Below are positions 28,391 to 64,000 of a stretch of 64,000 nt of DNA, piece after piece. The notes under the pieces were generated by a model. The model had not been told where the DNA came from. It ran no database searches and saw nothing but the letters and a program-made list of their open reading frames with translations. Every line of letters begins with the position of its first letter. Position 1 is the stretch's first letter. Origin of the DNA: Dipteris shenzhenensis (taxonomy: Eukaryota); the NCBI GenBank assembly GCA_047967505.1, contig CM106538.1; one strand, 5' to 3'. A program made the translations under genes and the position numbers.

Positions 28391-29115
28391 TGTAAGAAAA
28401 CAATACAACGTCTGTGCTCAACAGATAACAGGATCTTGTACACAAGACAGAAAACCAGATAGTATGGAGAATAAAAAATTTGATTACTGTAGATTTGATA
28501 CAATTGATGGCACTGCCTCCCAACCATGCGCTCCTGTGAAAGAAGCTTCGATGGCAAGATGGAAATAGTAGAGGACAGAGGCTAGATGCTAAGGAATCAG
28601 GGTTGCTATAGCCAGTGATGAAATGGGCTTCATAGGCTCACTCTTATATAGCCACTAATCATAGTCAGTTGGACCCAATTGGGTGACCGACCTAGTCTAC
28701 CCAAAATGGTCGACTGGGGGTCAGTCTTGAAATAGGCCACCGACCACACGATAGAACCGTGGCGTAAAATAGAGCAACTAACCTACGGGCTCTGTTCGGC
28801 CCACAGCCATCCGGGATCAACTAGGACTCCAAACGGGCCCCGCAACTTGAGAGTGGGTTGCCCCGAGAAATGCTCTGTCTACCCTCAATGCAGTCAGTCA
28901 TGGGATGCCTTCCCACACTTGCATGTAGCCTAGTTGGAAGTGTGCCAACTCCGTCCAGCCATCAGCAGGCCACAGATGGCCCCCATCTAGTGTCCGAACC
29001 AAGACCTACCGGATAACCGAGCTACTCAAATGCCTTCTCCTCATATGGGGGGCTTACAAGTAGAGTTAGTTGGTTCTCGCGTAGTTACACGAGAGTGGAG
29101 CATTGATATCTAACA
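28391..29115 (-). repeat. 3' LTR (725 bp)
   Basis: Aligns end to end with 40501-41224, with many transition differences. Confidence 0.95.
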
Positions 29116-31276: not shown

Positions 31277-31532
31277 TGTTGAGAGTTCACGCTCAACATC
31301 ATGTGATCATGTGTGCATAGCACCATCACGTGATCATATGTGCATAGCACTAACCTTATAGAGTGCTATAAAGGAAAGGGTTAGATCCCCTAACCTAACC
31401 CTAAAAGGGTTTGTATATATTCTATTTTTTCAACTAATTCTAGTGTACAGTTAGTCATTTGTGGTGTGCTCTCTAGCTGTGCCCTCTCTCCTCATCTCCA
31501 CTCTTCTCCTCTCCCCTCTTCATATTTTGTCA
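31277..31532 (+). repeat. 5' LTR (256 bp)
   Basis: TG...CA ends, TATA-like CTATAAAG, followed directly by the PBS. Confidence 0.97.
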
Positions 31533-32619
31533 TGGTATCAGAGCTCCCTTGTCTTCCGCTGAGACATTGAGTTTCTTGAGAGTGTGAGAGAGATTGTGAG
31601 ATTGAGAGTTCTCTTGAGTGATTGTGAGATCTTTCCCTTCACTTCCGTTGAGAGAAATTTCCGTCATTGAGAAGAAATTTCCGTCCATTATTCTTTCTTT
31701 GAGTTCATTCTTGAGAGATTTTAGTTCCTTCTCTTGAGTGTTTCTTATTCCGTGAGAGAGAGAGACCTCTGAGTGTTCATTGAAAGCTTCAAGAGCTATT
31801 ACTGTGTGAAAGAGATAGGGTGAGAAAGAAAGGTTTTAGTCTCATTCTCAGAGAAAGAGATAGAGAGGTGTCTCAAGAGAGTTTGAGAGTGTTTTCTTTT
31901 TCAAGAGAAGCCCAGCAACAACCAAGGCTCCATCGACAAGATATTGTGGGCTACAACGAACGCAGGCTACTGCACCGACAGACCTCCTTCTACGCGGCTG
32001 CGACCACGGTTGCACACTCCAGCAACGAAGCGTCTCCTAGTTGGTACCCGCGAGCGGACCTCCATAGTCTTCTACGACTTCCAAGCCTCTTCACCGGCTC
32101 CTACGCTACCTGCGCTCCAGACCACTTCACAAAGCGGCTCTCGTTGCACCAGCGACTCCTAAGCTCCATCAACGACGAGCGCCCACGAGCAAGCATCTCC
32201 AAGCCTCACGCCTCGAATGGCTCCGCAGCTAGCCTCACGCCTCGAACACGCAGCTAGCCACACATCTCGTACAGCGAAGCTCTAGCGCTTAGCGCTCTCG
32301 TACAATGGGGGTCCAGCGCAAGAGTTCGCAAGAGTTCCGTGTCCATCCCTCCTTCAAGTGAGCATCTTCGGAGAACTGCGAACATCGAAGCTTCAGATTT
32401 GAGCGTGGACGGAGCTCACCCAGCCACGACAGCGAAAGCCCTTCTTCCCAGAGCCCAGCTGCCACCACGAATGTGAAAGCCAAGCGTCTAGCAACCTCGC
32501 AACATCGAACGAGCGCCTCCAAACGCGCACATTCCCGTTTCCAAAGCTCCATCGACGGAGAAGACGACGGAATCTAGAAGATTCCGTCCGAATCTTTCTA
32601 GATTCTGGCTTCCCACAGC

Positions 32620-33125
32620 GTGACACGTGGCCCGTGCGCCATGTCATCTAATCTGCCACGTGTCAACCTTATCTGCCACGTGTCAATCCTATCTGCCACG
32701 TCAGCACTGCCACATCATCTGCCACATCAGCAGTGCCACGTAAGTAGGCCACGTCATCACTGACTGCCACATCAGCACCGACTGCCACATCACCTGCCAC
32801 GTCATCAGTGACACATCATCAGCCACGTCACCTGCCACATCATCAGTGACACATCATCAGCCACGTCACCTGTCACGTCATCAGTGACACGTCATCAGGC
32901 CACGTCATCTGCCATGTCATCTGGCCACGTCATCTGCCACGTCATCTACCACGTCACTTGTGCCACGTCATCTGTGCCACGTCATCATTGCCACGTCATC
33001 AGTGCCATGTCATCAGTGACACCTCAGCACTGCCACCTCAGCACAGAGCTTCACTGGCACACCTCTTGCTAAGCACAGTGCCACATCATCACTGCATGTG
33101 ACTCACAGTGACACATCATCATTGA
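32620..33125 (+). repeat. Dense array of TGCCACGTCA(TC)-type 10-13-bp units (G-box/ACGT-core) in the retrotransposon leader
   Basis: Dozens of GCCACGTCA, GCCACATCA and GACACGTCA units; an equivalent array lies at about 61180-61640. Confidence 0.9.
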
Positions 33126-33903
33126 GCACCATTTGCACTCCTTTTGCCCCTCCACCTAGATCAAGTCATATCTCTTGATCCAGGAAGAATTTGAGGGTGC
33201 TCCAAAAAGGAAAGTCGCTCGATTTTTTGTGCTCTATGCGCTCGTTACATCATGCGCACATTTCGGTGCAAGTTACACTCACATTTGAGCCTCGCCGACA
33301 AAACCACTTCCTTCATGCACATTTGCCTCTACATCGACGCATCTGACCCAGCACTTAAAAGGAACAAAGGAAAAGGAATTATTTGCTGCTCTTTCATCGA
33401 TCGACGGTTGGTTTAGATCTAGATCAGAGTAGACTAGATCGCCATAGAGGGGACGCTTTGAATTCCCCAAGTTGCCAATCTAAGCCATGCCCGAAATTCC
33501 CGACTAGTACCTACTCGGAGTCAGTCCATACGCTCACATCCGATTTCACATCATTACATTACCTGAAACCTTACGTTCATCAGTTCAGTGAGCAGACTTC
33601 AGAGTTCAGAGGCATTGCAGATTGATTCAGTGGGCAGATAGCACTTGATTTCACACACACATGCCACCATTGTAAAGCCTATTTGGCTATCTCACGGCAT
33701 CGTGCACATCATTTTTCAGCCTTGTAAAGCCTCTTGGCTATTCCCGGCATCATTGCCACAAGCCTTGTAACACAGGTCAGATCTTATTTACTGCAGTTCT
33801 ATCTTCACCGACGGTACAGAGATTTCACTTGGCATCTTCAGTGTATTTGCAGTTGATTCATACAGAGTTTTCCAGGACACTTTTTGAGTACATTGTTTGC
33901 ACC

Positions 33904-36900
33904 ATGTCGACTAGCAACCTCAATCTGGAGGCATCTGCTAAGTTAGACAACTCCAATTACGGTACATGGAAATACCGAATGGAGACCATTCTTGTGCTTC
34001 AGGACAAATGGGAGTATGTTGATGGATCCATACCTAGACCATTGGCAGATCCAGCCACCAGTAGCTCTACTCCATCTGTTGTCACAGCACCAGCAACGGG
34101 ATCTACATCGGGATCTACATCTACACAAACAGTTTCCGCATCAGTAGCAGATCCTGCCATTGCCCGAGCTCAAGCAGAATGGGATAAGAAAGACAAGTAT
34201 GCCTATCACCTGATCAAGCAGAATGTGCAAGATGTCATGCTAGGACAGCTCAACACAGTCAAGACATCAAAAGAAGCATGGGATATGTTCACAGCTCTCT
34301 ACGAGTCCAAGAACACATCCAGGATTCTCACCTTGAGAAACCAGATCAACCAGAGTTTCCGCAATAGCAATGAAACCGGTCATGCTTATGTACTCCGCAT
34401 CAAAGACTACAACAATCAACTTGCAGCAGCAGGAGAAACTATGAATCCCGCAAAAATGGTTCAAGTAATCCTGAATGGACTAGGAGAAGGATATGAGAAT
34501 CTGGTCCAGAGTATTGCCATCCAATGACAAATTCCAACAGTTGAAGAACTTCAGTCAGTTCTACTTGGTGAAGAACTCAGGACTCAGGCCATTCAAGCAC
34601 GTAAAGGTCATTCTAATGATCAGGCATTCACAGCTTCAGACAGAAGCAGAGGCAAAGGCAGAAACAGAGGTAAATCATATCAGAAAAGTGGTCAAAATCA
34701 AAGTCAGAATCAGCATCAGCATCAGCAGCATCCTCAGCAACATCAAAATCAGCAAAGAGGAAATCATTCCAACAGAGGAAGATTCCAAGGACGAGGGAAT
34801 GCATCCACCAATGTGTCAAACATTCAATGCAACTATTGTCACAAGTTTGGACACTATGAAAGAGATTGTCGCAAGAAGCAGTATGACCAAGGCGGTCAAT
34901 CCAGCAGTAATCGAGGGAATTCCCAAGGAAGAGGAAATCATCGTGGTGGACATTCTAGTCACAGTCATTTTGCAAATGAACATGGAAATATGTTTCTTGC
35001 AAGTGAGGAATTGCATCAGACTGATACAATGCACCTAGACACTGATTTCAATCCCAAAGAAGATTTCAGCTATCAAGTCGACCAAGTGGAACAGGATCCT
35101 TGGTACATCGACAGCGGTGCATCATCTCATATGACAAAATGGTTTACAGAAATGCAGCCATTAGAAGGTCAAAAGAATGTCATCTATACAGCAGACAATA
35201 CACCGAATCCGGTTCAAGGGACAGGTGTTATCCCTATGAACAATTTCACTGGTACAAAAGGATTAGTCAAAGATGTGCTCTATGTTCCGAAGCTCAGTAA
35301 GAACCTTTTGTCAGTAGGTCAAATGACGGAACACAACTACAAAGTCATCTTCGATGGTGATGAATGCACTATCAGAGACAAATCCAAAAGAGGTCAGCTA
35401 GTAGCAAAAGGTGTCAAGGAAGGACGCTTATACAGGATGCTAGCTATGGTACCAGATAAGCATGCCATGTCAGCTCAAATGCAACAGATGCCACTATCTG
35501 CAAAATGGCACAAGAGATATGGTCATGTCAACTTCAAGTACTTGTTAGATCTCAGGAATCAGAATATGGCAATTGGGATTCCGAAGCTACAGTTTCTTGG
35601 AAAGGTTTGTGAAGCATGCTGCTTCGGCAAACAAAAGCGAACCAACTTTGTCAGAAGTACCTCTCGTGCACGAGGTATTCTTGATTTAATTCATACAGAT
35701 GTATGGGGTTATGCCCAGACCCGCAGCATCAATGGTTCACTTTATTACTTGACCTTCATCGACGACTACAGCAGATATTGTTGGGTCTACTTTCTGAAAG
35801 AGAAATTTGAAGTGTTTGCCAGATTTCAAGAATTCAAAGCCATGGTAGAAAACCAAACAGGCAGAAAGATTAAGGTCATGAGATCAGATAGAGGAGGTGA
35901 ATACATGTCTTCAGCCTTCATGAACTTTTGCAAAACTCACGGCATTCGAAGACAATTCACATGTGCAGATACTCCTCAGCAAAATGCAATAGCTGAAAGG
36001 AAGAATGGGACTTTAGCAGATAGTGCTAGAGCAATGCTTAGTGAAAAGCATCTTCTGAATCAGTATTGGGTAGAAGCAATAGCTACAGCTAACTACTTGC
36101 TTAATCGGCTTCCTACCGAACCGATACAAGGAATGACTCCTTATGAAGCATTCATTGGACACAAGCCATGCATTGGGCATCTCCGCATATTCGGTTGCAT
36201 AGCATATGCTCACATACATGATGATCATCGCAGGAAATTGGATGCGAAGTCACGCAAATGCATCATGGTTGGCTACAGTGAAGAAAGTAAAGCATACAAA
36301 TTGTATGATCCCATCAACCGCAAAGTCATTATCTCCAGAGATGTAATCTTCGATGAGGAATCAGAATGGAAAACCTCACCTACACAGGAGATAGAAGCAT
36401 CGACTTCACAGTCATCTACAGAACAGGTTGATGAAGAAGAGCAAGAATTGCCAGCAACACCCCAATCAGCGTCACAGCAGCTCAGACGGTCTACTAGGGA
36501 AAGCAGACCACCAGCCAGATTGACATATGCTCAGAAAGGCAAAGCAATTCAGGTGGAAACCACCAACTATGCTCTTATGACTACCATCGTGGCTACAGAA
36601 GAGCCAGTGTACTTCGAAGACGCAGTAGATAAGCCAGAATGGCAAACTGCAATGAATGAAGAAATGGATGCTTTGTATAAAAATAACACTTGGGAATTAT
36701 GCGACCTTCCACCAGGAAAGAAGGCCATAGCCAACAAATGGGTATACAAAGTGAAGTACAATCCAGATGGCAGTATTCAGAGATACAAAGCCAGATTAGT
36801 TGCAAAAGGATTTGCACAACAATATGGCCAAGATTATGATGAGACTTATGCTCCAGTAGCAAAGATGGATACCATACGGTTCTTGATATCACTAGCGACA

Positions 36901-38151
36901 CTCAGTAAATGGAATGTGTATCAGCTCGATGTCAAGAATGCATTTCTCAATGGTTATCTAGACGAGGAAGTCTACATGCAACAACCAGCCGGTTATGTTG
37001 AACCAGGACAGGAGAACAAGGTTTGCCATCTCAAGAAAAGTCTCTATGGCTTAAAGCAAGCACCCAGAAGTTGGTACAGCAGAATTGACAAGTATTTTGC
37101 TGATCTGGGATACATGAAGTCCAATGCAGATCATACTCTCTACTACAAAGTTCAAGGGGAAGATATTACTATTGCACTTTTGTACGTAGATGATCTGATT
37201 GTGACAGGAAGCAAGGATAGCTTCATCAGAAAGCTAAAACAAGACTTATCTGCAGAGTTCGACATGAAAGATCTTGGACTTATGCACTATTGTCTTGGAA
37301 TTGAGTTCTGGAGAGATTCAGATAGCACATTCATGAGTCGGCTCAAATATGTTGATAGTCTCCTGAAGAAGTTTCATATGGCAGATTGCAAGATTGCAGC
37401 CACTCCCATGGAACAGAGTTTGAAACTTACTAAAGATTCAGAAAAGCCTACAGTCAATGACAGATACTACAGGCAACTCATTGGATCTCTTATATATCTG
37501 ACAATCACACGGCCAGATATTTGTTATGCAGTAAGCTCACTAGCATAGTTTATGGCAAATCCAAAACAGTCTCACTGGAATGCAGCCAAAAGAGTCTTGA
37601 GATACATCAGAGGTACAAGACAATTTGGGATAGAATACAGAGGAAGTCATCCACGGTTGCATGGATACTGTGATAGTGACTATGCTAGAGATCATGAGAC
37701 CAGGAGATCGACACAGGGATATGCATTTTTCCTTGGTCAAGGTGCTATATCATGGTTGTCAAACAAACAGCCAACTGTTTCTTTGTCTTCGACTGAAGCA
37801 GAATATAGAGCACTCACTACAGGTGCATGTGAAGCTATATGGCTCAGAAGACTATTGTCAGAAACAGATTACTTTGATGAGTCAAAGCCAACAACAATAT
37901 ACTGTGATAATCAATCGGCTCAAGCATTGGCCAAAAATCCAGTATATCACTCCAGGACAAAGCACATTGATGTCAGAGAGCACTTCATCAGAGAAAGAGT
38001 GTTACTTGGTGACATCACACTGCAGCATTGTGATAGCAAAGAAAATGTTGCAGACATCTTTACCAAACCACTCGGTAAAGAGCTATTCGAGAAACACCGA
38101 CTAGCTCTTGGTTTGATGCAGAGGAAGGACATTCCCATTAAAGGGGTGTGA
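33904..38151 (+). pseudogene. copia gag-pol polyprotein, single frame with only two in-frame stops (TGA 34525, TAG 37546)
   Basis: ORFs 33829, 34813 and 37552 share one frame. KLDNSNYGTWK, CNYCHKFGHYERDC, WYIDSGASSHM, LDLIHTDVWG, RSDRGGEY, YKARLVAKG, LDVKNAFLNG, LYVDD, GYCDSDYA, ADIFTKPL. Confidence 0.97.
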
Positions 38152-38239
38152 TGGAATGTAATGCTCAGTCCTTCTTCGATTCCCCAGAATCATCATCTTG
38201 AGGGAAGGCCTACTTCATGATGTTGATCTTGAGGGAAGG

Positions 38240-38496
38240 TGTTGAGAGTTCACGCTCAACATCATGTGATCATGTGTGCATAGCACCATCACGTGATCAT
38301 ATGTGCATAGCACTAACCTTATAGAGTGCTATAAAGGAAAGGGTTAGATCCCCTAACCCTAACCCTAAAAGGGTTTGTATATATTCTATTTTTTCAACTA
38401 ATTCTAGTGTACAGTTAGTCATTTGTGGTGTGCTCTCTAGCTGTGCCCTCTCTCCTCATCTCCACTCTTCTCCTCTCCCCTCTTCATATTTTGTCA
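38240..38496 (+). repeat. 3' LTR (257 bp)
   Basis: Preceded by the PPT and followed by TSD GGCAT. Confidence 0.97.
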
Positions 38497-40500: not shown

Positions 40501-41224
40501 TGTAAGAAAACAATACAATGTCTGTGCTCAACAGATACCAGGATCTCGTACGCAAGAGAGAAAACCAGATAGTATGGAGAATAAAAAATTTGATTACTAT
40601 AGATCTGATACAATAGATGGCGTTGCCTCCCAACCGTGCACTCCTGTGAAAGAAGCTTCGATGGCGAGCTGGAAACAATAGAGGATGGAGGCTGGATGCT
40701 AAGGAATCAGGGTTGCTGTAGCCAGTGATGAAATGGGCTTCACGTGCTCACTCTTATATAGCCACTAGTCGTAGTCGATTGGACTCAATTGGGTGACCGA
40801 CCAAGTTTGCCCGCCAAAAAGGTTGATTGGGCGTCGGTCTCGAAATAGGCCACCAACCACATGATAGAACTATGGTGTAAAATAGACCATCTAACCTATA
40901 GTCTTCGTTTGGCCCATAGCCATCCGGGATCAACTAGGATTCCAAACAGGCCCTGCAACCCGAGAGTGGCTGCCCCAGGAAATGCTCTGTCTACCCTCAG
41001 CGCAGTTAGTCATGGGATGCCTTCCCGCACTTGCATGTAGCCTTGTTGGCAGTGTGCCAACTCCGTCCAGCCATCATGCCACACATGGCCCCCATCTGGT
41101 GTCCAAACCAAGACCTACCGGATAACTGAGCTACTCAAATGCCTTCTCCTCATATGGGGGGCTTACAAGTAGAGTTAGCTGGTTCCCGCGGAGTTACATG
41201 AGAGTGGAGCATTGATATCTAACA
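40501..41224 (-). repeat. 5' LTR (724 bp)
   Basis: Adjacent to the PBS; followed by TSD TGGAT. Confidence 0.95.
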
Positions 41225-46690: not shown

Positions 46691-46756
<66 letters not shown>

Positions 46757-47099
46757 AACCAAAATGGAAGGGGGTATTGATATTGTGCACAGCCACTCGA
46801 GCATTTGATTGGATTTGTTTGACTACTTCTATAACAAAAAGTCAATTTTCACACTTTTTACGCCAAGGGAGTCATTTTTTAAACTTTGATTGGATTTGTT
46901 TTCCTACTTCTACAACAAATAACACCTTACTTGGATTTGTTTGACTATTTCTACAACAAGTGAGTACAAGCTTTTGTGAGCACTACCTTCAAATTGGTTC
47001 TGTCAAAGGAAAACAATTGTAAAGATGATCGAATCATTAATTCGTAGCACCAATGATGGAAGCCCATGCATAGGAAAGTCCTTATGATGTGCAAATTTT

Positions 47100-47152
<53 letters not shown>

Positions 47153-47153
47153 T

Positions 47154-47200
<47 letters not shown>

Positions 47201-47620
47201 AACCAAAATGGAAGGGGGACACTTGGCAAGAAAGTGTGTGGGACACTTTTTAACAAAAGTGTAACTATAGCATTGCCTTGAAGGCAGTGCTAACAAACAA
47301 CCAATTTTCACCCTTTTTATACCAAGTGATTCATTCTTCAATGATTTGGCCAACTAGATGGGTAAATGGCCTTGAACAAGGAAATGAGTGGCAAGACATC
47401 ATAACTGATGCTGAGCCATATTTCATTGATTTGGAAAAACCAAGTCTGTTGAGGGACTAGACCAATGAAATAAGTTTTTAAGGTCTTCCTTCTTGATGGG
47501 TTTGATATTGTAGAAAGGCAACATGATCATTATATTCCCCTTCTCCATCATTGATTTAATTTTTTCACCATAAATTACATTTTTCCACACTTTCTATAGC
47601 ACATGACCCATTTCATGGAA
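44410..47620. repeat. Highly degenerate satellite-like array, period roughly 165-190 bp
   Basis: Recurrent TTTTCACACTTT(C/T)TATACCAAGGGAGCCATTTT near 44415, 44585, 44765, 44935, 45130, 45370, 45555, 45740, 45925, 46105, 46270, 46445, 47305 and 47580. Confidence 0.75.
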
Positions 47621-49910
47621 CATTACCCCATGCTATCAAAAGAAAGTATGTGTGATTACGTATGACTGAATCTTTATTAAGCAATGGGTTTATGATTTAT
47701 CCAAATTTCACATGTTGAGTTAAAGAGTTGCTAACAAGGGTTATATTCATGTGCACTTCTAGTCATACACATGTAGCCCTAGTTATAACATAAGGTATTA
47801 GAGCACAAAGGATATTGTGCCTATGTTTGTATTTTAACTCTTCTATTGAGTTGTAGACGATGCTGGGAGATAGGTGGCCGAGATGGCGTGAGAAGAAGCA
47901 AACTTTTTTTCTTCTCCCACATTGTGGGAAGGGGTTGGCATCAATGGGGTTAGAGGATTTGTAACTTGGGTCTTCTAGGAGAAGTTTATTCTCTTCCTAC
48001 TTTCCCCTCGCTCTCCTATTTGCCCATTTGATTTATGGGTAGCCTTTCCAAGGGACACTTGAGTAAGAAGACCCTTCGATTCTTTGATTCTGACTTTGAC
48101 CTGGATTGACATAGATGATTTTTCTCAACTTCAACCATTGTGTATTGCATATGGCCATAGAGCCTTACTTTGATCAAATTGTCGTGTCTAGTGAAGACCC
48201 CCACATCTTTTGTGGCTTTGTACATTGCATCAAGCCACAAGCCTCAAGTCGCCTCAAGTAGCTTAACTACTTCTTGCTCCATAACGTTCCTGCCTATAGT
48301 TCTAGGCTGTACCGCCCTTTTCAAGTCATAAGCCTTGATGATTAGAAGGTTATCTCTATTTTCTATAGCTTTTTCTTTCCCTTGTCGTGAGTAACATGCA
48401 TCATAGCTTCTTCATTCCACAAAGCCATGTGCAAATACATTTGCGAAAGACACAATTCTAAGATCTACTCCTTAGTGAGTGAATCTATTTTATTTTTTCC
48501 CATTCGAGATGGATTACTCCATGTCCTTAAATGCTGGATCAGAATGGTTTTAAATGCATAAGTTCCATCAAGGCTACACTTTTTATAAGCTCATGTAGTT
48601 TTGGCAAAAGTAACGACATCCATCCTTAAAGCATGAGTGCAATGTCTTCATAGAAAGGACAAATGGAGCATAGAAACAACAAAGTATTCATTAGAAGACC
48701 AAAATTCATAAGCCTTAGATAACATGGAGCATATATGATCAACAATTCCATTTGATTTGATTTTGGATAGGTCATTTGAACCTACTCAAGAATAGCTTCA
48801 ATTTTGATTCAAATCACTACTTAAATTGGGTATAATAGTGAGTTGAACCTGAAACATGTTGTGGAGGTAGCTCTATTGGGTCATTGTTTCCTTGGGTGTA
48901 GCCTTTTTTGATGAGGTTCATGGACTTTTTTGTATATAGGTATCTTGCATGACCCATAACTTATGCTTTGCTCAATGGAATTCAGCAAACTTTGTCTTCA
49001 AGTTGTAATACACATTCCAAACATGAACATGAAAGCAAAAAATTATGTAATAAGGATTTGGAACAAGACCGTAAAAGAATTACAAGTGCTATGTTTCATG
49101 TGAAGCATGCATCCTGAAGACTATAGGATATAATAATTTATTCAAAAACCTCAAAATTTTGTTCTATAGATACATACAACCAAGTAATCATTCAAAAGTA
49201 CACTACGTGAGCTTCTCCTCAACCCAAGGATGCACCTAAATGAGATCATTATGGATGGGTTAATGGGGCCTCCAATGTTGTGCTAAAGTGATGCATAGCC
49301 ATTTGAGGGCATGCTCCATAACTTTTTTTTGATTTGTTGAAAACCAAAACGGATTGAAAACTTGGAATCCAAACTATTGGGACAAGTGCATGGTGGTCTT
49401 AAAACGTTGATAGTTGATGGTATTGGTGTCTAGATTCACCGTAAAATGGAAGAAGCTGGAAAGTGCAATTTGTGCATGTGCAAATATATTTTAATAAATC
49501 CAACACTATTTACAATTTTGAATTGTTTCTTTTTCCATGCACTTACTTGCTATATGGCTCATAAGCATGCCAAAGGTCATTGCATTTAGTAATACACAAC
49601 ATCAAACACGATGGTGTGCCCTTTGGCCTATTTGTGTTTTGAAGCATTTTAGGGCACATTGCACTTCTTTGGGATATCGAAGTCTGCTGACATGTATCAC
49701 CAGAGGGGGAAAAACGAACGGCTTAAATTTTGCTACCCCCGTGAATTTTGAATTTTCACACCTCCCACCCATCGAATCTTGGAAGATTAAGTACCTGCAA
49801 CTTGCCCCTGCCCTGAAATGCCCTACAACCCACATGCACCTCAACATGACCTTGCATAGACTTTGGTTTGCCATTGTCTTCTTTCGGGTGAGTTGTCTTC
49901 TAATCTTTGA

Positions 49911-50180
49911 TTGCCTTACCAAATAGCTTCTTCGAGTCTAATCAGGAATGTGGATCTTACCTTTACTAAAAGGCCAAAAGTGATTTGTCAATGCAGAGTA
50001 CAATATAGTTCAGAGCATAAGAAAAGGAGAGGTAGCCTAAGTGCAGAAGTCATTGCTATAGTGATGACGTTTTGGCATAAAAATACGAGAGTTTCTCCAA
50101 ATAGAAAAGACATCTATAAGAAGCGGACGAGATGCAAGGTGTTTGAGGAGCACATCATACACATGCTAAATATAATGCAG
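49911..50180 (+). pseudogene. Possible degraded DNA-transposase-associated exon; second copy at about 58155-58425
   Basis: FWHKNTRVSPNRKDIYKKR...EEHIIHMLNIMQ followed by a GTTAGT donor-like site; resemblance to transposase N-terminal regions is from memory only. Confidence 0.3.
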
Positions 50181-50269
50181 GTTAGTGGTGCATAGACTAG
50201 CTCGGTGCTTGTTTGTGATTGCGCTTTGGGATAGTTTACTTGTTTCAATTCTTAAACTAGGCTTGGACT

Positions 50270-50915
50270 AAATGCGATTGTCCTAAACCAGCCTAGTGGC
50301 TGGAACATCATGAACTGTAGGCTGGTTCAGCTCAATTGCTAGCTATGTGATTGTCCTAAACTAGCGCATGTGGTTGAACATACATTAGTTGTTATTCAGC
50401 CTGGTGGCATGGTCGAGCAAAAATTAATAGCAATATATTTCATAATATATTGTTATTTTACTAAACCAGCCCGGTGATTGGAACATCATGCAACTGTGGC
50501 TGCTTTGGCTCAATCACTAGTTATGTGATTGTCTTGAATGAGCATGGTTGAATAGACATTACTTATTGACCAGCTCTATGGTTGTAATTATTGTATTTCT
50601 TAGTACCTAAATTCATTAAATTTAATTTCCTACTATTCGAGTCATATACCATTGCTAAATTGTGAAATTCAGAAATGAAAAGCAATATATTGTTATTTTC
50701 TAATGGTGAAATTCAAAAATGAAAAGCAATATACTTGTTATTGTCTAATATGTGAAGTTGACTCTGTTAGGCTAAACTATCCCAGTGGTTGAAACGATGA
50801 TAGTGTCCTAAACCATCCCGGTGGTTGAAATTGTGAGTGACTGCTGTCCTAAACGTGTCCTAAACCAGACCGGTGATTGAAATTATGACTCTCCTAAACC
50901 AGCGCAGTGGTTGAA
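50270..50915. repeat. Degenerate short repeats TGTCCTAAACCAGCCCGGTGGTTGAA; also at about 58495-59155
   Basis: Many imperfect copies at irregular spacing. Confidence 0.75.
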
Positions 50916-52400
50916 ATTCGTTTTGCTTCATTATATACTTTAATTAGACTGTGTTTTGTATTCTTTTAGTAGTAGCAAAAAGGGGGCTCATTGTTCTGTT
51001 GTTCCTGCATGTTGGGTCAACAGACTGAATTGTATCTCAAGTTTATGGATCGGAATCCGAACATTTGAGAATTAATTCATGATGGTGGTCGCTCTCATTA
51101 GCCACGTTTGTCGTGGCTAAGATTCCACCCGGCTGGCAGTCAATTACTAGCCACCGAAGTGCCACCACATGGCATCTTCTTCATGATTACTAGCCCCCCG
51201 TCTGGGGTGGTGCCTAAGATTCCACCACGGTGGCTTGCAATTAATATGGATGGAACCCCAGCAAGCTCCAGCCACCACAGTGGCTCAAAATTTATAATAT
51301 ATATAAGATCTGTGGCATTTGGCATTTTACTATGTTGCTCTGATCCCGCCCATGATCTACTACTTTGCTCCACACACTCTGCTACTTTGCTCCACACCCC
51401 TCCTCAAGATCTTTTCTGCCTCTGCTCTACTTTGCTCCATGCTCCCTCCTCCAACTCTCATCACTCATCTGCTCCCCTACTCACCCACTCATCTTCAACA
51501 TGCCTACTACCACCCCCCCTTGATGCTCTGTGATCCCAATGTTATCTGCCTTCTCATATAAGGTGATTGTGTTGCACTCACCTGGAGTAGGAATGCTAGC
51601 ACTAGTGGAGACCCTTCGTTCCCACAGTCGATTCCCCACACATCTACATGTCACCACCTTAGATGACATGCTCATAGAGGGCCTCTTTATGGATGTGCTA
51701 TATGGGTTCCCCCTAGATGTCCACGAAGGCCTTAGTATTTTCAGAGCAGAGTACTCTAGACTTGTTGGGGGAGCCATAATCCGAGTCCTAGCAATGTGCA
51801 TGGTCTTTGCCCTCTCCATCATATCCTCCTTTGGCTCCCTAAAACAAGCTAAACTAGTGGAAAACTGAGTCGTACAAATTCCCTCTTGCTTAGATGAGGC
51901 TCTCAACAATGGCTGGATGTAATCTTTTGGGTTCTCAACGATCTTTTGGCTCACTGGATGTAAGGTTGTGGTCTCTAAGGCATTCATGTAATCTCTTTTT
52001 GTTCAATTTGAGGCTCTCAGTATGCACACTTGTTAACTTTTATATTCTGAATGGTTATGGCTACTACCTGTAATCTTTTAGCCTTTAAGGCTCTCAGCAA
52101 TTGCTGAGTTTTTATAAATGTAAGATCCTCTGTTCAATTTTTACTCAATATAAGTTGATAATTTTTATATAACCTGTTATTGGATGTAGATGTACATTGT
52201 AATCTCTTTTGCTTTCGAGAACTTGTACTTTTGCCCTCATTTATATTTATTGCAACAAGGACTAAAATACCAGGAAAGATGGACTACAATTTCCTTGGTT
52301 TATGACAAAATAGCGCTAAAATAACTCCAACGATCCCACCATTGTGGTTGCATGGAGATATACCTAGAAAAATACAATTAAACTTTCAAAAATTGCAATT

Positions 52401-53480: not shown

Positions 53481-54245
53481 AGAAGAAGTAATTGGTAGAT
53501 CCATGAGTAAAGTCTCTTGATACACACTAGGTAAGCCTTTGACATAGAGCCACAAACATTCTCCAGCATGGATCAATTCTATTTCTCATTCTTATTTAAG
53601 TGGTGATATTCCATTCATGATCCCAAATGAAATCCACGAATCGGAAGAACAAAACTGGCAAAAAATTGTATTGCTCGCTATACAAGCATTGACTTAGTTT
53701 GAATTGCCATAATCATGTTGCAATAGCTCCCTTGGCTAGCAATCACGAATTCCTCTTGATTTTGGCATGAATTGAATTCTTACAAAATACAAAATGAGAT
53801 CAGATTATGTGCCATGGGAGATATTCAATTTATGTTTCAAACATAGATTTACAATAACTACATAGAAGAAGTAATTGTTAGATCCATGAGTAAAGTCTCT
53901 TGATACACACTAGGTAAGCCTTTGACATAGAGCCACAAACATTCTCTAGCATGGATTAATTCTATTTCTCATTCTTATTTAAGTGGTGATATTCCATTCA
54001 TGATCCCAAATGAAATCCACGAATCGGAAGAACAAAACTGGCAAAAAATTGTATTGCTCGCTATACAAGCATTGACTTAGTTTGAATTGCCATAATCATG
54101 TTGCAATAGCTCCCTTGGCTAGCAATCACGAATTCCTCTTGATTTTGGCATGAATTGAATTCTTACAAAATACAAAATGAGATCAGATTATGTGCCATGG
54201 GAGATATTCAATTTATGTTTCAAACATAGATTTACAATAACTACA
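53481..54245. repeat. Near-identical tandem duplication, period 383 bp
   Basis: AGAAGAAGTAATTG(G/T)TAGATCCATGAG starts at 53481 and at 53864. Confidence 0.95.
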
Positions 54246-54385: not shown

Positions 54386-55346
54386 TATTGGGAGACATGT
54401 CTATAGCAACAGAGATGTTTTTCACTAATTTGGCTAAGGCAAATGCATAAAGTTCCTTGATGGGATAGAGCTTGTGGAAAGGGAAAGCGAGTTGGATCCC
54501 CCTTTCTAGACTAATTCCACCATAGAATGGTGTTTTTTCAAACTTTTTATAATGGGAGCCATTTTCCATTGATTTGGCTGACCAAGTGCGTAAACATCCT
54601 CAAGTCCATCAGAGTATCCTCAAGTGGGTATTCATCATCAAGTCCATCAGAGTATCCATAAGGACGTCTAAGTTTATGTTATTGAGATTGTGGAATGACC
54701 AAATGAGCATTAGATCAGTCTTGCTTGATTGATTCCACCATAAACTCTATGATTCATACTTTCTATACTATGTTGGGATCCATTTCTCATTTGTTTGCTT
54801 AGGTAGAAACGGACTCAAGTTAGGCAAGATGTATGCAAGTTTCTAATACTTGATTAGATGAACTTTTAACTAGAACATGGGAGAATTGGATCTCCATTGC
54901 TTTCCCATTCCTTCTTCTTACACTTTCTATATGAATGGAGCCTTTTTTGCCTAATTTGGCTAAAGTGAGTGTCTAAAGGGACTCAAGTTAGGAAATGAGT
55001 GAAAATTTCACTAAAAAATGGTATTGATATTGTGCACAGCCACTCGAGCATTTGATTGGATTTGTTTGACTACTTCTATAACAAAAAGTCAATTTTCACA
55101 CTTTTTACGCCAAGGGAGTCATTTTTTAAACTTTGATTGGATTTGTTTTCCTACTTCTACAACAAATAACACCTTACTTGGATTTGTTTGACTATTTCTA
55201 CAACAAGTGAGTACAAGCTTTTGTGAGCACTACCTTCAAATTGGTTCTGTCAAAGGAAAACAATTGTAAAGATGATCGAATCATTAATTCGTAGCACCAA
55301 TGATGGAAGCCCATGCATAGGAAAGTCCTTATGATGTGCAAATTCT

Positions 55347-55429
<83 letters not shown>

Positions 55430-58400
55430 AACCAAAATGGAAGGGGGACACTTGGCAAGAAAGTGTGTGGGACACTTTTTAACAAAAGTGTAACTATAGC
55501 ATTGCCTTGAAGGCAGTGCTAACAAACAACCAATTTTCACCCTTTTTATACCAAGTGATTCATTCTTCAATGATTTGGCCAACTAGATGGGTAAATGGCC
55601 TTGAACAAGGAAATGACTGGCAAGAGATCATAACTGATGTTGAGCCATATTTCATTGATTTGGAAAAACCAAGTCTATTGAGGGACTAGACCAATGAAAT
55701 AAGTTTTTAAGGTCCTCCTTCTTGATGGGTTTGATATTGTAGAAAGGCAACATGATCATTATATTCCCCTTCTCCATCATTGATTTAATTTTTTCACTAT
55801 AAATTACATTTTTCCACACTTTCTATAGCACCTGACCCATTTCATGGAACATTACCCCATGCTATCAAAAGAAAGTATGTGTGATTACGTATGACTGATT
55901 GTTTATTAAGCAATGGGTTTATGATTTATTCAAATTTCACATGTTGAGTTAAAGAGTTGCTAACAAGGGTTATATTCATGTGCACTTCTAGTCATACACC
56001 TGTAGCCCTAGTTATAACATAAGGTATTAGAGCACAAAGGATATTGTGCATATGTCTGTATTCTAACTCTTCTATTGAGTTGCAGACGATGCTGGGAGAT
56101 AGGTGGCCGAGATGGCATGAGAAGAAGCAAACTTTTTTTCTTCTCCCACATTGTGTGAAGGGGTTGGCATCAATGGGGTTAGAGGATTTGTAACTTGGGT
56201 CTTCTAGGAGAAGTTTATTCTCTTCCTACTTTCCCCTCGCTCTCCTATTTGCCCATTTGATTTATGGGTAGCCTTTCCAAGGGACACTTGAGTAAGAAGA
56301 CCCTTCGATCCTTTGATTCTGACTTTGACCTGGATTGACGTAGATGATTTTTCTCAACTTCAACCATTGTGTATTGCATATGGCCATAGAGCCTTACTTT
56401 GATCGAATTGTCATGTCTAGTGAAGACCCCCACATCTTTTGTGGCTTTGTACATTGCATCAAGCCACAAGCCTCAAGTTGCCTCAAGTAGCATAACTACT
56501 TCTTGCTCCATAACATTCCTGCCTAAAGTTCTAGGCTGTACCGCCCTTTTCAAGTCATAAGCCTTGATGATTAGAAGGTTATCTCTATTTTCTATAGCTT
56601 TGTCTTTCCCTTGTCGTGAGTAACATGCATCATAGCTTCTTCATTCCACAAAGCCATGTGCAAATACATTTGCTAAAGACACAATTCTAAGATCTACTCC
56701 TTAGTAAGTGAATCTATTTTATTTTTTCCCATTCGAGATGGATTACTCCATGTCCTTAAATGCTGGATCAGAATGGTTTTGAATGCATAAGTTCCATCAA
56801 GGCTGCACTTTTTATAAGCTCATGTAGTTTTGGCAAAAGTAACGACATCCATCCTTAAAGCATGAGTGCAATGTCTTCATAGAAAGGACAAATGGAGCAT
56901 AGAATCAACAAAGTCTTCATTAGAAGACCAAAATTCATAAGCCTTAGATAACATGGAGCATATATGATCACACAATTCCATTTGATTTGATTTTGGATAG
57001 GTCATTTGAACCTACTCAAGAATAGCATCAATTTTGATTCAAATTACTACTTAAATTGGGACATGAGCTCATCTACAATAGTGAGTTGAACCTAAAACAT
57101 GTTGTGGAGGTTTCTCTATTGGGTCATTGTTTCCCTGGGTGTAGCCTTTTTTGGTGAGGTTCATGGAATTTTCTGTATATAGGTATCTTGCATGACCCGT
57201 AACTTATGCTTTGCTCAACGGAATTCAGCAAACTTTGTCTTCAAGTTGTAATACACATTTCAAACTTGAACATGAAAGAAAAAAATTATGTAATAAGGAT
57301 TTGAAACAAGACCGTAAAATAATTACAAGTGCTATGTTTCATGTGAAGCATGCATCCTGAAGACTATAGGATATAACAATTTATTCAAAGACATCAAAAT
57401 TTTATTCTATAGATACATGCAACCAAGTAATCATTCAAAAGTACACTACGTGAGCTTCTCCTCAACCCAAGGATGCACCTAAATGAGATCATTATGGATG
57501 GGTTAATGGGGCCTCCAATGTTGTGCTAAAGTGATGCATACCCATTTGAGGGCATGCTCCATAACTTTTTTTTGATTTGTTGAAAACCAAAACGGATTGA
57601 AAACTTGGAATCCAAGCTATTGGGACAAGTGCATGGTGGTCTTAAAACGTTGATAGTTGATGGTATTGGTATCTAGATTCACCCTAAAATGGAAGAAGTT
57701 GGAAAGTGCAATTTGTGCATGTGCAAATATATTTTAATAAATCCAACACTATTTACAATTTTGAATTCTTTCTTTTCCCATGCACTTACTTGCTATATGG
57801 CTCATAAGCATGCCAAAGGTCATTGCATTTAATAATACACAACATCAAACCCGATGGTGTGCCCTTTGGCCTATTTGTGTTTTGAAGCATTTTAGGGCAC
57901 ATTGCACTTGTTTGTGATATCCAAGTCTGCTAACGTGTATCACCGGAGGGGGAAAAACCAACAGCTTAAATTTTGCTACCCCCATGAATTTTGAATTTTC
58001 ACACCTCCCACCCATCAAATCTTGGAAGATTAAGTACCTGCAACCTGCCCCTGCCCTGCAAATGCCCTACAACCCACACGCACCTCAACATGACCTTGCA
58101 AAGACTTTGGTTTGCCATTGTCTTCTTTCGGGTAAGTTGTCTTCTAATCTTTAATTGCCTTACCAGATAGCTTCTCCAAGTCTAATCAAGAATGTGGATC
58201 TTACCTTTACTAAAAGGCCAAAAGTGATTTGTCAATGCAGAGTACAATATAGTTCAGAGCGCAAGAAAAGGAGAGGCAGCCTAAGTGCAGAAGTCATTGC
58301 TACAGTGATGACGTTTTGGCATAAAAATATGAGAGTTTCTCCAAATAGAAAGGACATCTGTAAGAAGCAGACGGGATGAAAGGTGTTTGAGGAGCACATC

Positions 58401-59565
58401 ATACACATGCTAAATATAACGCAGGTTAGTGGTACCTAAACTAGCCTGGTGGTTGTTTGTGATTGAGCTTTGGGATAGCTTACTTGTTTCATTTCTTAAA
58501 CTAGGCTTGGACTAAATGTGATTGTCTTAGACCAGAATAGTGGTTGGATCATCATGCAACCATAGGCTGGTTCAGCTCAATTGCTAGCTATGTGATTGTC
58601 CTGAACCAGTGCATGTGGTTGAACATCCATTAGTTGTTATTCAGCCCGGTGGCATGGTCGAGCAAAAATTAATAGTAATATATTTCATAATATATTGTTA
58701 TTTTACTAAACCAGCCCGGTGATTGGAACATCATGCAACCGTGGCTGCTTTGGCTCAATCACCAGTTATGTGATTGTCCTGAATGAGCATGGTTGAACAA
58801 ACATTACTTATTAACCAGCTGCGTGGTTGAAATTATTGTATTTCTTAGTACCTAAATTCATTAAATTTAATTTCCTACTATTCGGGTCACATACCACTGC
58901 TAAATTGTGAAATTCAGAAATGAAAAGCAATATATTGTTATTTTCCAATGGTGAAATTCAAAAATGAAAAGCAATATACTTGTTATTGTCTAATATGTGA
59001 AGTTGAGTCCGTCAGGCTAAACCATCCCAGTGGTTGAAACTATGATAGTGTCCTAAACCATCCCGGTGGTTGAAATTGTGAGTGACTATTGTCGTAAACA
59101 TGTCCTAAACCAGACCGGTGATTGAAATTGTGACTCTCCTAAACCAGCGTGGTGGCTCGGGGGGTCACTATGTATAAACCCTCTATATCACATGCGTTCA
59201 AGTCCTATATTTAAAGTCCCTTATCTGTAAAAAATTTCATTAATAAAATGTACCCCTTTTCTATACAAATCTGTAAATTTTTTCCAAAACTATTTTAAAT
59301 AGTCCCTTATGTATATTTATTTCTATAAATTTTAGAAATTAAAAAAATCCTTCTGTTAAACTCACGTGATAGGGTTACATACGATGAGTGACCCCCCCAA
59401 GCGTGGTGGTTGAAATTTGTTTTGCTTCATTATATACTTTAATTAGACTGTGTTTTGTGTTCTTTTAGTAGTAGCAAAAAGGGGGCTCATTGTTCTATTG
59501 TTCCTGCATGTTGGGTCAACAGAATGAATTGTATCTCAAGTTTATGGATCGGAATCCGAACATTT
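54386..59565 (+). repeat. Segmental repeat copy 2 (~5.2 kb)
   Basis: Colinear with 45776-51066; lacks the internal duplication, carries a MITE; microsatellite at about 55326-55425. Confidence 0.95.
59156..59401. mobile_element. 246-bp MITE with 8-bp TSD CGTGGTGG (hAT- or P-type TSD length)
   Basis: TIRs CTCGGGGGGTCACT... / ...AGTGACCCCCCCAAG; AT-rich interior; empty site in copy 1 at about 50900 (ACCAGCGCAGTGGTTGAAATT). Confidence 0.88.
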
Positions 59566-59579
59566 CAATTGGGCAGAGG

Positions 59580-61787
59580 TGTTGAGAGTTCATGCTCAAC
59601 ATCATGTGATCATGTGTGCATAGCACCATCACGTGATCATATGTGTATAGCACTAACCTTATAGAGTGCTATAAAGGAAAGGGTTAGATCCCCTAACCCT
59701 AACCCTAAAAGGGTTTGTATATATTCTATTTTTTGAACTAAATCTAGTGTACAGTTAGTCATTTGTGGTGTGCTCTCTAGCTGTGCCCTCTCTCCTCATC
59801 TCCACTCTTCTCCTCTTCCCTCTTCATATTTTGTCATGGTATCAGAGCTCCCTTGCCTTTCGCTGAGGCATTGCCAATCTCGAGAGAGTGAGAGAGATTG
59901 TGAGATTGAGTGTTCTTTCACTTCCGTTGAGAGATAGAGAAATTTCCATCCATTTGAGAGGAATTTCCGTCCATGAGAGATTGAGAGATTTCCGTTAATC
60001 TCATTCCATTCTATTCATTCCTTCTTTAAGAGTTTCTATTCATTGGAGAGAGAAAGAGGGAGCGAGATTTCAGTTGAGAGAGATTCACTCTGAGAGATTG
60101 TGTGAAAGAGAGAGAGGTTTTGAGATATCTGTGAGAAAGAGTTCTTAGACTCCCTCAATGACTGCATACCTGAGGTGCATTAGCCCCTGCGTGCTCGCCA
60201 AGTCTACAAGGCTCCGACCTTGACTACATGCCCACAACAAATAAGGCTCTCTATGCATAGCCTTCTCAGCGAGGGCTCATCCACGACGGCCTGCTTCTCC
60301 AAGCTTTGACCCGCCGGGCTCACGGGCTCACGGGCAATGCTTCAAAACTGCCCATGCAAGCCACCTCTCCAAAGCTTCTACAAAGCTTCCAACAAACAGG
60401 CCTACTTCCAACAAATGGCTCCTATAGCAGAAGCCTTGGACGTCTCCAATCGGCAGTGCGGCTCTACATCGGCTCTCATCGACTCGACAACCTTCTACAC
60501 GGCCTTCTCTAGGCAACGCCAAGCTTCTAGCTCAGCAACTCTGTAAGCCGCGCAGTGCCTAGCTCCATATAGCCTGTATTCCTTATATCCCCTGTTACTC
60601 ACTACGTCACCAACCGTCTTGTTGGTAATAATGAACGCAAAGATGGTGAAGAAGAAGAGCAAGACGATGAGCGGCATGAGTCACAATTGAAGCACAACTC
60701 CATGGAATTGGTCTTGTCAAGCTCAACCAACTCGACATACTTTGCCACGGGATTCCCTTGAGCCCTGCATCGTCAACAGCCACGCTTTGGCCCAAAGTAA
60801 GGGCCCGCTCTTGGCAACGCCTCTCCTGACGGCCCTTCCCGATAGCTTGCGGGATCCCATACCCTCTGATGCCATCGATACCCTGCGCCATTCGACCTCT
60901 CAGCCTCTACAACGACTAAGAGAATTTGCATCTGCAAGGCGCCATCTCCATCGTTCAGTCCATCGCCTCCGTCGACCAAGATACCTGCATCTCTTCTTTG
61001 AGAGAGAAATTGCCACGTGGCAGATAAGGCCACATGGCACTCTTCAATCCCATCACCCACCTTAGGGCAAGGTAACCCGGGGTAGAGTAACCTTGGTAAA
61101 AAATGGATAAGGATGGTTAAGTGAACCCCTAGTCAAGTTAAGCCAAGGCTGGGCTACTCAGAGAAGGGTGGTCAAAAATCAGCCACGTGGCACTTATCCA
61201 TGGCACTTATCCACTTGCCATGTTATCCATCTTATCATCAATCTTATCATGCCACATCATCAACCTTATCATGCCACATCATGAAGGCAATCCTTATCTA
61301 CCACATCACCCTTGCCAGCTCAGTAGGCCACGTCACCTGTGCCACGTCAGCACAAACACGTCATCATCGACTACCACATCATCATCGATTGCCACATCAC
61401 CTATGCCACATTAGTAGTTCATGTCATCACTACACATCAGCATTGCCATGTCATTTGCTGACATCATCATCTATGCCACCTCACTAGTGCCACCTAAGTA
61501 GTCCAATCAACACTGACCTCTGTAGGCACTCACAGTGCTCCACAGTCACTTCATGTGACCACTTCTGCCACCTCAGCACAAGCTCCACTGGCACACCTCT
61601 TGCTAGGCATAGTGCCACATCATCATTGCATGTGACTCATAGTGACACATCATCATTGAGCACCATTTGCACTCCTTTTGCCCCTCCACCTAGATCAAGT
61701 CATATCTCTTGATCCAGGAAGAATTTGAGGGCGCACCAAAAAGGAAAGTCGCTCGTTTTTTTGTGCTCTACGTGCTCATCACATCAT
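59580..61787 (+). mobile_element. Truncated sister of the 31277-38496 copia: 5' LTR, PBS and leader only
   Basis: LTR 59580-59836 differs from 38240-38496 at about five positions; PBS TGGTATCAGAGC 59837-59848; GCCACGTCA array; block 61565-61787 matches 33030-33253, then breaks off. Confidence 0.95.
60570..60700 (-). pseudogene. Two captured fragments of a plant tetraspanin coding sequence, antisense to the retrotransposon
   Basis: 60671-60570 = LIVLLFFFTIFAFIITNKTVGDVVSNRGYKEYRL (TM3 and start of the large loop; family pattern FAFVVTNKG.G.....GYKEY.L). 60700-60671 = ELCFNCDSCR (family pattern LC(Y/F).C.SCK), in a different frame. Confidence 0.85.
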
Positions 61788-64000
61788 TGATTTGGAAAAA
61801 CCAAGTCTATTGAGGGACTAGACCAATGAAATAAGTTTTTAAGGTCCTCTTTCTTGATGGGTTTGATATTGTAGAAAGGCAACATGATCATTATATTCCC
61901 CTCTACATCATTGATTTAATTTTTTCACCATAAATTACATTTTTCCACACTTTCTATAGCACATGACCCATTTCATGGAACATTACCCCATGCTATCAAA
62001 AGAAAGTATGTGTGATTACATATGACTAAATGTACTATCTTGCTGCTCTGATGTATCTCAAGACTCTTTTGGCTGCATTCCAATGAGACTATTTTGGATA
62101 ACATAAGGTATTAGAGCACAAAGGATATTGTGCCTATGTTTGTATTCTATCTCTTCTATTGAGTTGCAGACGATGCTAGGAGATAGGTGGCCAAGATGGC
62201 ATGAGAAGAAGCAAACTTTTTTTCTTGTCCCATATTGTGGGAAGGGGTTGGCATCAATGGGGTTAGAGGATTTGTAACTTGGGTCTTCTAGGAGAAGTTT
62301 ATTCTCTTCCTACTTTCCCCTCGCTCTGCTATTTGCCCATTTGATTTATGGATAGCCTGTCCAAGGGACACTGAGTAAGAAGACCCTTCGATCCTTTGAT
62401 TCTGCCTTTGACCTGGATTGACGTAGATGATTTTTCTCAACTTCAACCATTGTGTATTGCATATGGCCATAGAGCCTTGCTTTGATCAAATTGTCATGTC
62501 TAGTGAAGACCCCCACATCTTTTGTGGCTTTGTACATTGCATCAAGCCACAAGCCTCAAGTCGCCTCAAGTAGCATAACTACTTCTTGCTCCATAACGTT
62601 CCTGCCTATAGTTCTAGGCTGTACCGCCCTTTTCAAGTCATAAGCCTTGATGATTAGAAGGTTATCTATACTTTCTATAGCTTTGTCTTTCCCTTTTCGT
62701 GAGTAACATGCATCATAGCTTCTTCATTCCACAAAGCCATGTGCAAATACATTTGCTAAAGACACAATTCTAAGATCTACTCCTTAGTGAGTGAATCTAT
62801 TTTATTTTTTCCCATTCGAGATGGATTACTCCATGTCCTTAAATGCTAGATGAGAATGGTTTTAAATGCATAAGTTCCATCAAGGCTGCACTTTTTATAA
62901 GCTCATGTAGTTTTGGCAAAAGTAACAACATCCATCCTTAAAGCATGAGTGCAATGTCTTCATAGAAAGGACAAATGGAGCATAGAAACAACAAAGTCTT
63001 CATTAGAAGACCAAAATTCATAAGCCTTAGATAACATGGAGCATATATGATCACACAATTCCATTTGATTTGATTTTGGATAGGTCATTTGAACCTACTC
63101 AAGAATAGCATCAATTTTGATTCAAATTACTACTTAAATTGGGACATGAGCTCATCTACAATAGTGAGTTGAACTTTAAACATGTTGTGGAGGTAGCTCT
63201 ATCGGGTCATTGTTTCCTTGGGTGTAGCCTTTTTTGGTGATGTTCATGGACTTTTCTGTATATAGGTATCTTGCATGACCCATAACTTATGCTTTGCTCA
63301 ACGAAATTCAGCAAACTTTGTCTTCAAGTTGTAATACACAAACATGAAAGCAAAAAATTATGTAATAAGGATTTGGAACAAGTGCTATGTTTCATGTGAA
63401 GCATGCATCCTGAAGACCATAGGATATAACAATTTATTCAAAAACATCAAAATTTTATTCTATAGATACATGCAACCCAATAATCATTCAAAAGTACACT
63501 ATGTGAGCTTCTCCTCAACCCAAGGATGCACCTAAATGAGATCATTATGGATGGGTTAATGGGGCCTCCAATGTTGTGCTAAAGTGATGCATACCCATTT
63601 GAGGGCGTGCTCCATAACTTTTTTTTGATTTGTTGAAAACCAAAACGGATTGAAAACTTGGAATCCAAACTATTGGGACAAGTGCATGGTGGTCTTAAAA
63701 CGTTGATAGTTGATGGTATTGGTATCTAGATTCACCCTAAAATGGAAGAAGTTGGAAAGTGCAATTTGTGCATGTGCAAATATATTTTAATAAATCCAAC
63801 ACTATTTACAATTTTGAATTGTTTCTTTTTCCATGCACTTACTTGCTATATGGCTCATAAGCATGCCAAAGGTCATTGCAATTAATAATACACAACATCA
63901 AACCCGATCGTGTGCCCTTTGGCCTATTTGTGTTTTGAAGCATTTTAGGGCACATTGCACTTGTTTGGGATATCCAAGTCTGCTGACGTGTATCACCGGA
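61784..64000 (+). repeat. Segmental repeat copy 3 (partial; runs off the right edge)
   Basis: TCATTGATTTGGAAAAACCAAGTC... colinear with 47423 onward and 55652 onward. Confidence 0.95.
62046..62098 (-). other. ~53-bp filler derived from copia RT of the 31277-38496 family
   Basis: CTCTGATGTATCTCAAGACTCTTTTGGCTGCATTCCAATGAGACTATTTTGGA is the reverse complement of about 37560-37612 with two mismatches; absent from copies 1 and 2. Confidence 0.9.

Follow-up and report, generated by a model that had tools for sequence, protein, structure and literature searches.

The leader of a truncated copia retrotransposon carries a patch of 144–148 bp in which two pieces of a tetraspanin sequence adjoin each other on the minus strand, in swapped order relative to the gene, in different frames and antisense to the element. 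To judge from a contig that carries both of them, the pieces come from one tetraspanin-8-like host gene, whose order is permuted in the patch. Discontinuous copying from that gene, most likely by the reverse transcriptase of the element, seems the likeliest source of the patch, if by no means a firm one. Throughout the text, "the window" is the whole stretch of DNA that was analysed (64 kb), and the positions of the features within it are collected in Table 1.

Table 1. Features of the patch, its donor and the elements around it (positions within the window)
Feature	Position	Strand	Description
Tetraspanin piece 1	60570..60672	-	End of TM3 and start of the large extracellular loop, LIVLL...GYKEYRL; P0001 residues 82-115; putative donor exon 1
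Tetraspanin piece 2	60672..60717	-	(Y)KTNSMELCFNCDSCR, 46 nt; LC..C.SC motif region, profile positions 207-222; putative donor exon 2
Donor neighbours of piece 1			Before: LWLYLVAMFL; after: (R)LGDYSTWLQ; hand-translated loose ends
Donor neighbours of piece 2			Before: VSYSSDCTTY; after: (R)AGVLQNINK; hand-translated loose ends
Truncated copy (copy 2), 5' LTR	59580..59836	+	TGTTGAG...TTTTGTCA; 98.1% identical to the sibling's 3' LTR over 260 nt
Truncated copy, PBS	59837..59848	+	TGGTATCAGAGC; identical 12-mer after the sibling's 5' LTR, 31533-31544
Truncated copy, leader	59849..61787	+	Joined to repeat R at 61787, with 4-nt TCAT microhomology at 61784-61787
Truncated copy, middle of leader, holding the patch	59996..61240	+	1245 bp, copy-specific
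Sibling, full-length Ty1/copia	31277..38496	+	LTRs 31277-31532 and 38240-38496, 99.6% identical
Sibling, gag	33676-34527	+	Retrotran_gag_2
Sibling, pol domains	34528-37548	+	Pol_BBD, gag_pre-integrs, rve, SH3_retrovirus and RVT_2, in that order
Repeat R, three copies	45776-51066, 54386-59579, 61784-64000		93-97% identity

Two tetraspanin pieces in the patch

The initial annotation, made from the letters alone, had described two peptides on the minus strand that lie in different frames and both fit plant tetraspanins. This reading held. ELCFNCDSCR is translated from the minus strand of the window at 60700-60671 and MPLIVLLFFFTIFAFIITNKTVGDVVSNRGYKEYRL at 60677-60570, one frame off. At the nucleotide level, piece 1 matches a donor contig over 60574-60672 (~100 nt), the assignment of 60570-60573 being ambiguous, while piece 2 matches over 60672-60717 and so extends 17 nt beyond the ELCFNCDSCR stretch noted at the outset. 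The two pieces overlap by a single base, G 60672.

The 60-aa ORF that holds the piece 1 peptide was searched against a collection of 5.8 billion proteins. The search gave 53 candidates, among which 12 proteins matched at E 1.3e-9 to 3.3e-8, every one of them with Pfam PF00335. Eight of the 12 are named: for seven, one source or more gives the name tetraspanin-8 or tetraspanin, and the remaining one bears an unrelated jgi label (EcfT). The named tetraspanin matches are mostly from legumes, with one from Cucumis. Within LIVLL...GYKEYRL, 28 of 34 residues are identical to P0001 (Glycine soja), and the similarity stops after RL; in LCFNCDSCRS, 7 of 10 residues are identical to P0001 at 213-222. 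When the piece 2 frame alone was compared with the protein collection, none of the 87 candidates reached E ≤ 10. Pfam made no tetraspanin call on either of the piece frames, because the pieces are too short.

A tetraspanin profile was built from the 7 full-length proteins of the 12, the truncated or aberrant P0005, P0006, P0008, P0010 and P0011 being excluded, and was run on all six-frame stop-to-stop pieces of at least 8 aa in the whole window (2177 scored). Piece 1 was the top match (61.6 bits, E 1.6e-17). Piece 2 came second among the 2177 (8.4 bits, i-E 0.28), adjoining the top match on the same strand; by our own arithmetic, the chance of a match with i-E 0.28 within ~150 nt on the same strand is 0.28 × ~300/128000, or ~7e-4. 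Among the top 25 matches of this search no other fell within 59580-61787, and therefore neither the GCCK region, reported as missing by the initial annotation, nor the remainder of the gene is present. Two further resemblances, a plus-strand stretch "KAGLL..." at 61145-61264 (E 0.47), considered as a third piece, and a match of "CAAYRVAELEAWR" to the tetraspanin tail (E 2.6), lie outside the top 25 profile matches and were dropped as chance. The six-frame profile search also found no tetraspanin gene elsewhere in the 64 kb that could have been a nearby DNA template.

In total, the patch holds ~49 of ~270 tetraspanin codons, in two frames and in swapped order. It lacks what makes up a tetraspanin gene, namely four TM helices and a loop with GCCK/RP and the conserved cysteines, all in one frame. 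The patch is a gene scrap, not a gene, and nothing tetraspanin-like is encoded, because the two pieces are mutually out of frame.

Donor contigs in public runs

In ten public runs, 5-8% of the words sampled from 59580-61787 were found, and the contigs of four of these runs were aligned to 59400-62000 at a likeness of at least 80%. A contig of 797 nt (run X2, record 11) agrees with 60574-60672 at 93 of 99 letters, without gaps, and departs from the window beyond either end of this match. Another contig alignment covers 60672-60717 and likewise has loose ends on both sides. In run X3, one contig joins 60717 to 60574 (it "goes back 144"), the shorter side of the joint measuring 46 letters. Since this single contig joins both pieces, the donor has both on one molecule, in an order opposite to that of the window. 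The proposal that the pieces stem from one tetraspanin gene in reversed order was thus confirmed. Two observations had been named beforehand as speaking against the proposal, a lack of any tetraspanin match and a lack of a nucleotide match for the LC..C.SC piece; both matches were found.

The contigs have loose ends at 60574, at 60672 (in both directions) and at 60717. The four ends, 30 letters each, were reverse-complemented and translated by hand, and all proved to be tetraspanin sequence (Table 1); the spacing from D-C to L-C is 11 residues in the donor as in P0001. At all four break points donor and window diverge exactly at the borders of the pieces, so that host-derived sequence lies internal to the element with a clean boundary between the two.

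The three tabulated differences in piece 1 (60613, 60629 and 60632) are all transitions, with A/T in the window and G/C in the contig. Piece 1 matches its donor at 94%, versus 98-99% for the LTR pieces in the same run (X2, records 9 and 10). The figure of 94% would fit either an old capture or a true donor that is a closer paralogue of the gene found here. X2 and X3 may be RNA runs, and we speak of the donor as a gene or transcript contig. Among the matches listed for the four runs, no contig bridges the patch and its flank, and scans of metagenomes gave 0 matches for the inner junction of the patch and 0 for the LTR end together with the PBS.

The matched proteins also bear on the exon structure of the donor. 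Four of the 12 (P0005, P0006, P0008 and P0010) leave the family alignment after ...LSALQ/LSSIQ and continue with V(S/R)F.... From these tails we infer read-through into a GT-starting intron located between the two pieces, which would assign piece 1 to exon 1 and piece 2 to exon 2. Neither piece crosses the exon 1/exon 2 junction, so the patch is compatible with an RNA donor and with a DNA donor alike.

The element that holds the patch

By its structure, the element is a 3'-truncated Ty1/copia that can no longer transpose. As hallmarks of an LTR element it retains only the 5' LTR and the PBS, which is presumably of the initiator tRNA-Met type; a deletion has removed the 3' part of the copy. The patch lies between the PBS and the gag-proximal end of the leader, where the sequence is 94% identical to the sibling, on the strand opposite to that of the element. 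Its earlier placement in a copia leader and in antisense orientation was therefore correct.

Compared with the sibling, the truncated copy shows 88% identity at 59580-59995, 73% at 61241-61484 and 94% at 61565-61787. The middle of its leader is unrelated to the corresponding 961 bp of the sibling (31685-32645) and has no other match within the window, and the same comparison revealed that the sibling is without the patch. At ~60100-61100 of the leader the GC content is 0.485-0.575, versus 0.42 in the whole window. Contig joints from the PBS region to 60350 or ~61000, and from 60456 to 61582, were excluded from the definition of family modules, as their sides are only 20-26 letters long; short repeats or other families may be their source.

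At 61787 the leader enters repeat R at an internal R position, TCAT being common to both partners. In other copies the leader continues in a sibling-like manner, as seen from contig loose ends behind 61786 in X2, X3 and X4, and therefore the 61787 junction is a later deletion. On the 5' side of the element, an R-like sequence in X4 (loose end at 59547) is similar to the 14 bp that precede the LTR, and here the element seems to have inserted into R in the ordinary way.

The sibling has the features of a Ty1/copia element: TG...CA LTRs, a 5-bp TSD (GGCAT on both sides), the same PBS, a purine tract (PPT) before the 3' LTR and the order gag-protease-integrase-reverse transcriptase, with gag_pre-integrs and rve preceding RVT_2 along a 1006-aa ORF. 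Its gag-pol frame is broken twice, by in-frame stops at 34525-34527 and 37546-37548. The sibling is nested in an older minus-strand copia (RVT_2 remnant at 29440-30015, Pol_BBD at 39247-39774), which is itself flanked by a repeat pair of 89% identity (28391-29115 and 40501-41224).

Surroundings of the patch and the rest of the window

Pfam found nothing in the three ORFs flanking the patch. For the ORF at 60773-61060 on the minus strand, none of 265 candidates in the protein collection reached E ≤ 10. The ORF at 60742-61065 on the plus strand had a single match, P0013 (E 2.2e-6), a protein of 582 aa made of ~134-aa tandem repeats, to which the ORF aligns in five places, each over 35-40 aa at 33-41%. 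The P0013-like stretch at 60780-60890 on the plus strand is weak (41% over 37 aa, five repeats). We read P0013 as translated repeat DNA rather than as a captured host gene; a gene caller has probably translated a related repeat. No sign of other captured coding sequence was found in the GC-rich flanks of the patch.

A duplication in the flanks of the patch was not significant, the best local score being 25 versus a maximum of 26 in 200 shuffles, and no inverted repeat was found that could fold the patch into a hairpin. Elsewhere in the leader, an 18-nt inverted repeat pair contains two perfect G-box-like palindromes, GCCACGTGGC, at 61012-61021 and 61182-61191, 170 bp apart. The 3' part of the leader (61216-61660) consists of degenerate short direct repeats with units of ~21-35 nt around CCACATCATC, and the sibling's leader has short direct repeats of the same kind at 32646-33040. 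Many contig "skips" fall in 61216-61660, and family members thus seem to differ in the number of repeat copies.

Overall, the window is a nest of transposable elements. The copies of repeat R are spaced ~8.2-8.6 kb and 6.1 kb from start to start, and the third starts at an internal position. Pfam found no family in the R ORFs tested (45105-45716 and 51481-52002), and R may be either a very long LTR or a segmental duplication arranged in tandem. Within its third copy, 62 bp at 62038-62099 match the pol region of the sibling (37559-37620) in reverse orientation at 92%. Remnants of a CACTA-type transposase (Transposase_21/tnp2 and DUF4218) lie at 21852-24316 on the minus strand, and a further copia gag, which includes a zinc knuckle (Retrotran_gag_2 and zf-CCHC), at 8430-9248, also on the minus strand. 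The window further contains two-copy tandem repeats at 53481-54245 (383 bp, 99%) and 18884-19601 (359 bp, 97%), as well as a compound (CT)n(CA)n microsatellite at ~55330-55480, visible as SLSLSL/THTHTH in ORF translations.

Possible origin of the patch

We lean, without great confidence, towards discontinuous copying from the tetraspanin-8-like gene, in which at least three template switches would have occurred: one into the donor, a hop of ~0.4 kb and one out. The hop would have led to a more 3' part of the donor, on the same or on a second donor molecule. The enzyme would most likely be the reverse transcriptase of the element, working in the virus-like particle with a co-packaged tetraspanin mRNA as trans template. 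A switch from minus-strand DNA onto the tetraspanin mRNA during plus-strand synthesis would give the antisense orientation. The chimeric cDNA would then have integrated into repeat R at 59579/59580, and a later deletion at the TCAT microhomology would have taken everything 3' of 61787. Against this reading, the overlap is only 1 nt at the inner junction of the patch, the one junction that can be read without a pre-capture leader.

Templated filler at plant double-strand-break junctions consists of short, scrambled, microhomology-joined copies of sequence from elsewhere, for which polymerase-theta end joining, synthesis-dependent annealing and replication switching of the FoSTeS/MMBIR type are candidate mechanisms. 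As the main rival it is possible, though we hold this only tentatively, that a template-switching polymerase repairing a break or a stalled fork after integration copied, in arbitrary order and orientation, two stretches from the tetraspanin gene or from a transcript of it. The pieces suit this reading no less well and look as such filler usually does: they are short (46 and ~100 nt) and scrambled, lie in different frames and meet with a 1-nt overlap. Moreover, the same copy has a deletion junction at TCAT and a copy-specific middle, and no other patch-bearing copy was seen among the contig matches listed for the four runs or in the metagenome scan. However, the template of such filler usually lies near the break, whereas the 64 kb contain no tetraspanin gene, and the flanks of the patch bear no duplication or deletion signature, given a score that stays below the shuffle maximum.

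The remaining explanations account for the order of the pieces in other ways. A single longer antisense capture of ~codons 81-221, followed by a tandem duplication and two deletions, would give the 221|81 junction without any hop, in a leader that is indeed rich in short tandem repeats and copy-number "skips"; but it demands three extra events where one hop suffices, the intervening ~270 nt left no trace, and the leader has no other profile match among the top 25, which makes it quite unlikely. Copying round a circular tetraspanin RNA, the other route that the initial annotation had offered, would yield the permuted order from one continuous read-through. We consider it most improbable, as the 221|81 junction falls inside exon 2 and inside exon 1 rather than at splice sites. 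In the hand-read loose ends of the donor contigs, GG rather than GT comes after the break and CT rather than AG before it, and a single intron between the pieces would leave neither exon with both of the splice sites that back-splicing needs. Finally, one ordinary capture next to a chance resemblance could be argued from the 8.4 bits of piece 2 alone and from its lack of a database match. We give this next to no weight: piece 2 is the second-best profile match in the window and adjoins the best, and its 46-nt match to the very contig that carries piece 1 (the X3 joint) already refutes it.

Possible activity and meaning

If the LTR were transcribed, the only plausible activity of the patch would be as a source of antisense RNA or siRNAs partly identical to the donor: the patch is antisense to the element, and therefore transcription from the LTR would yield RNA antisense to tetraspanin. 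If the element were silenced, siRNAs from the patch could, by analogy with other captures, match the donor. The tetraspanin family is tied to plant extracellular vesicles and to the cross-kingdom export of small RNAs. That transcripts or siRNAs from this leader act in trans on the donor tetraspanin is highly doubtful; were it true, vesicle biology or defence would depend in part on whether this copia family is active or silenced.

On the favoured reading, copying by the reverse transcriptase of the element, the patch would be a clean natural footprint of discontinuous copying, in which one donor was sampled twice, in the wrong order and with break points resolved to the base. Such footprints provide a gauge of the frequency and manner in which plant LTR elements acquire host sequence, and each is a candidate site of siRNA cross-talk with the donor gene. 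It is at best a remote possibility that scraps of host transcripts land repeatedly in the copia leaders of this family. The patch alone changes no concept, as it is a tiny, non-coding capture in a dead copy.

Comparison with known captures

The capture of host fragments by plant LTR retrotransposons with multiple switches is well known and has already been described. Partial host gene fragments inside LTR elements, between the LTR/PBS and the coding part, are reported in the available text of PMC13317346, PMC3726574 and bioRxiv 10.1101/777037, the first of which names Bs1, Veju and BARE-2 among the captures by LTR elements. Among the titles listed in a literature search, none concerned tetraspanin capture, though the genome-wide capture lists in supplements might name such a gene.

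The patch resembles Bs1 of maize and other gene captures by LTR retrotransposons, in rice, in sorghum and in the Sireviruses of maize, which in the accessible parts of these sources are likewise partial fragments between the LTR/PBS and the coding part. Bs1, however, as described there, carries pieces of three genes in sense orientation and forms an expressed chimeric ORF, whereas the patch holds two much shorter pieces of one gene, swapped, antisense and non-coding. The closest parallel in mechanism is found in Tan et al. 2016 (PMC5131818), whose available text describes LTR-mediated capture of partial mRNAs through template switches guided by microsimilarity, with more than two switches and with switch points anywhere in the mRNA. 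The retrocopies presented there replace part of the element ORFs and combine different genes, while the patch lies in the leader and its hop is within one gene. In the same text the median microsimilarity is 6 bp in the Drosophila cases, as opposed to the single nucleotide at the one readable junction of the patch.

With respect to small RNAs, captured fragments in maize have siRNAs matching the donor gene, according to the portion of Muyle et al. (bioRxiv 10.1101/777037) at hand. As in the captures by Pack-MULEs, Helitrons and Sireviruses considered there, an exon fragment in a silenced element could give siRNAs that match the donor; compared with those captures, as far as that portion describes them, the patch is small and its piece 1 is 6% diverged. 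Filler from plant break repair likewise consists of short scrambled pieces, but it usually has a nearby template, and none was found for the patch within the window. As a double patch from the same gene, in swapped order and antisense, with junctions defined to the base, it is a neat specimen of a known kind of capture.
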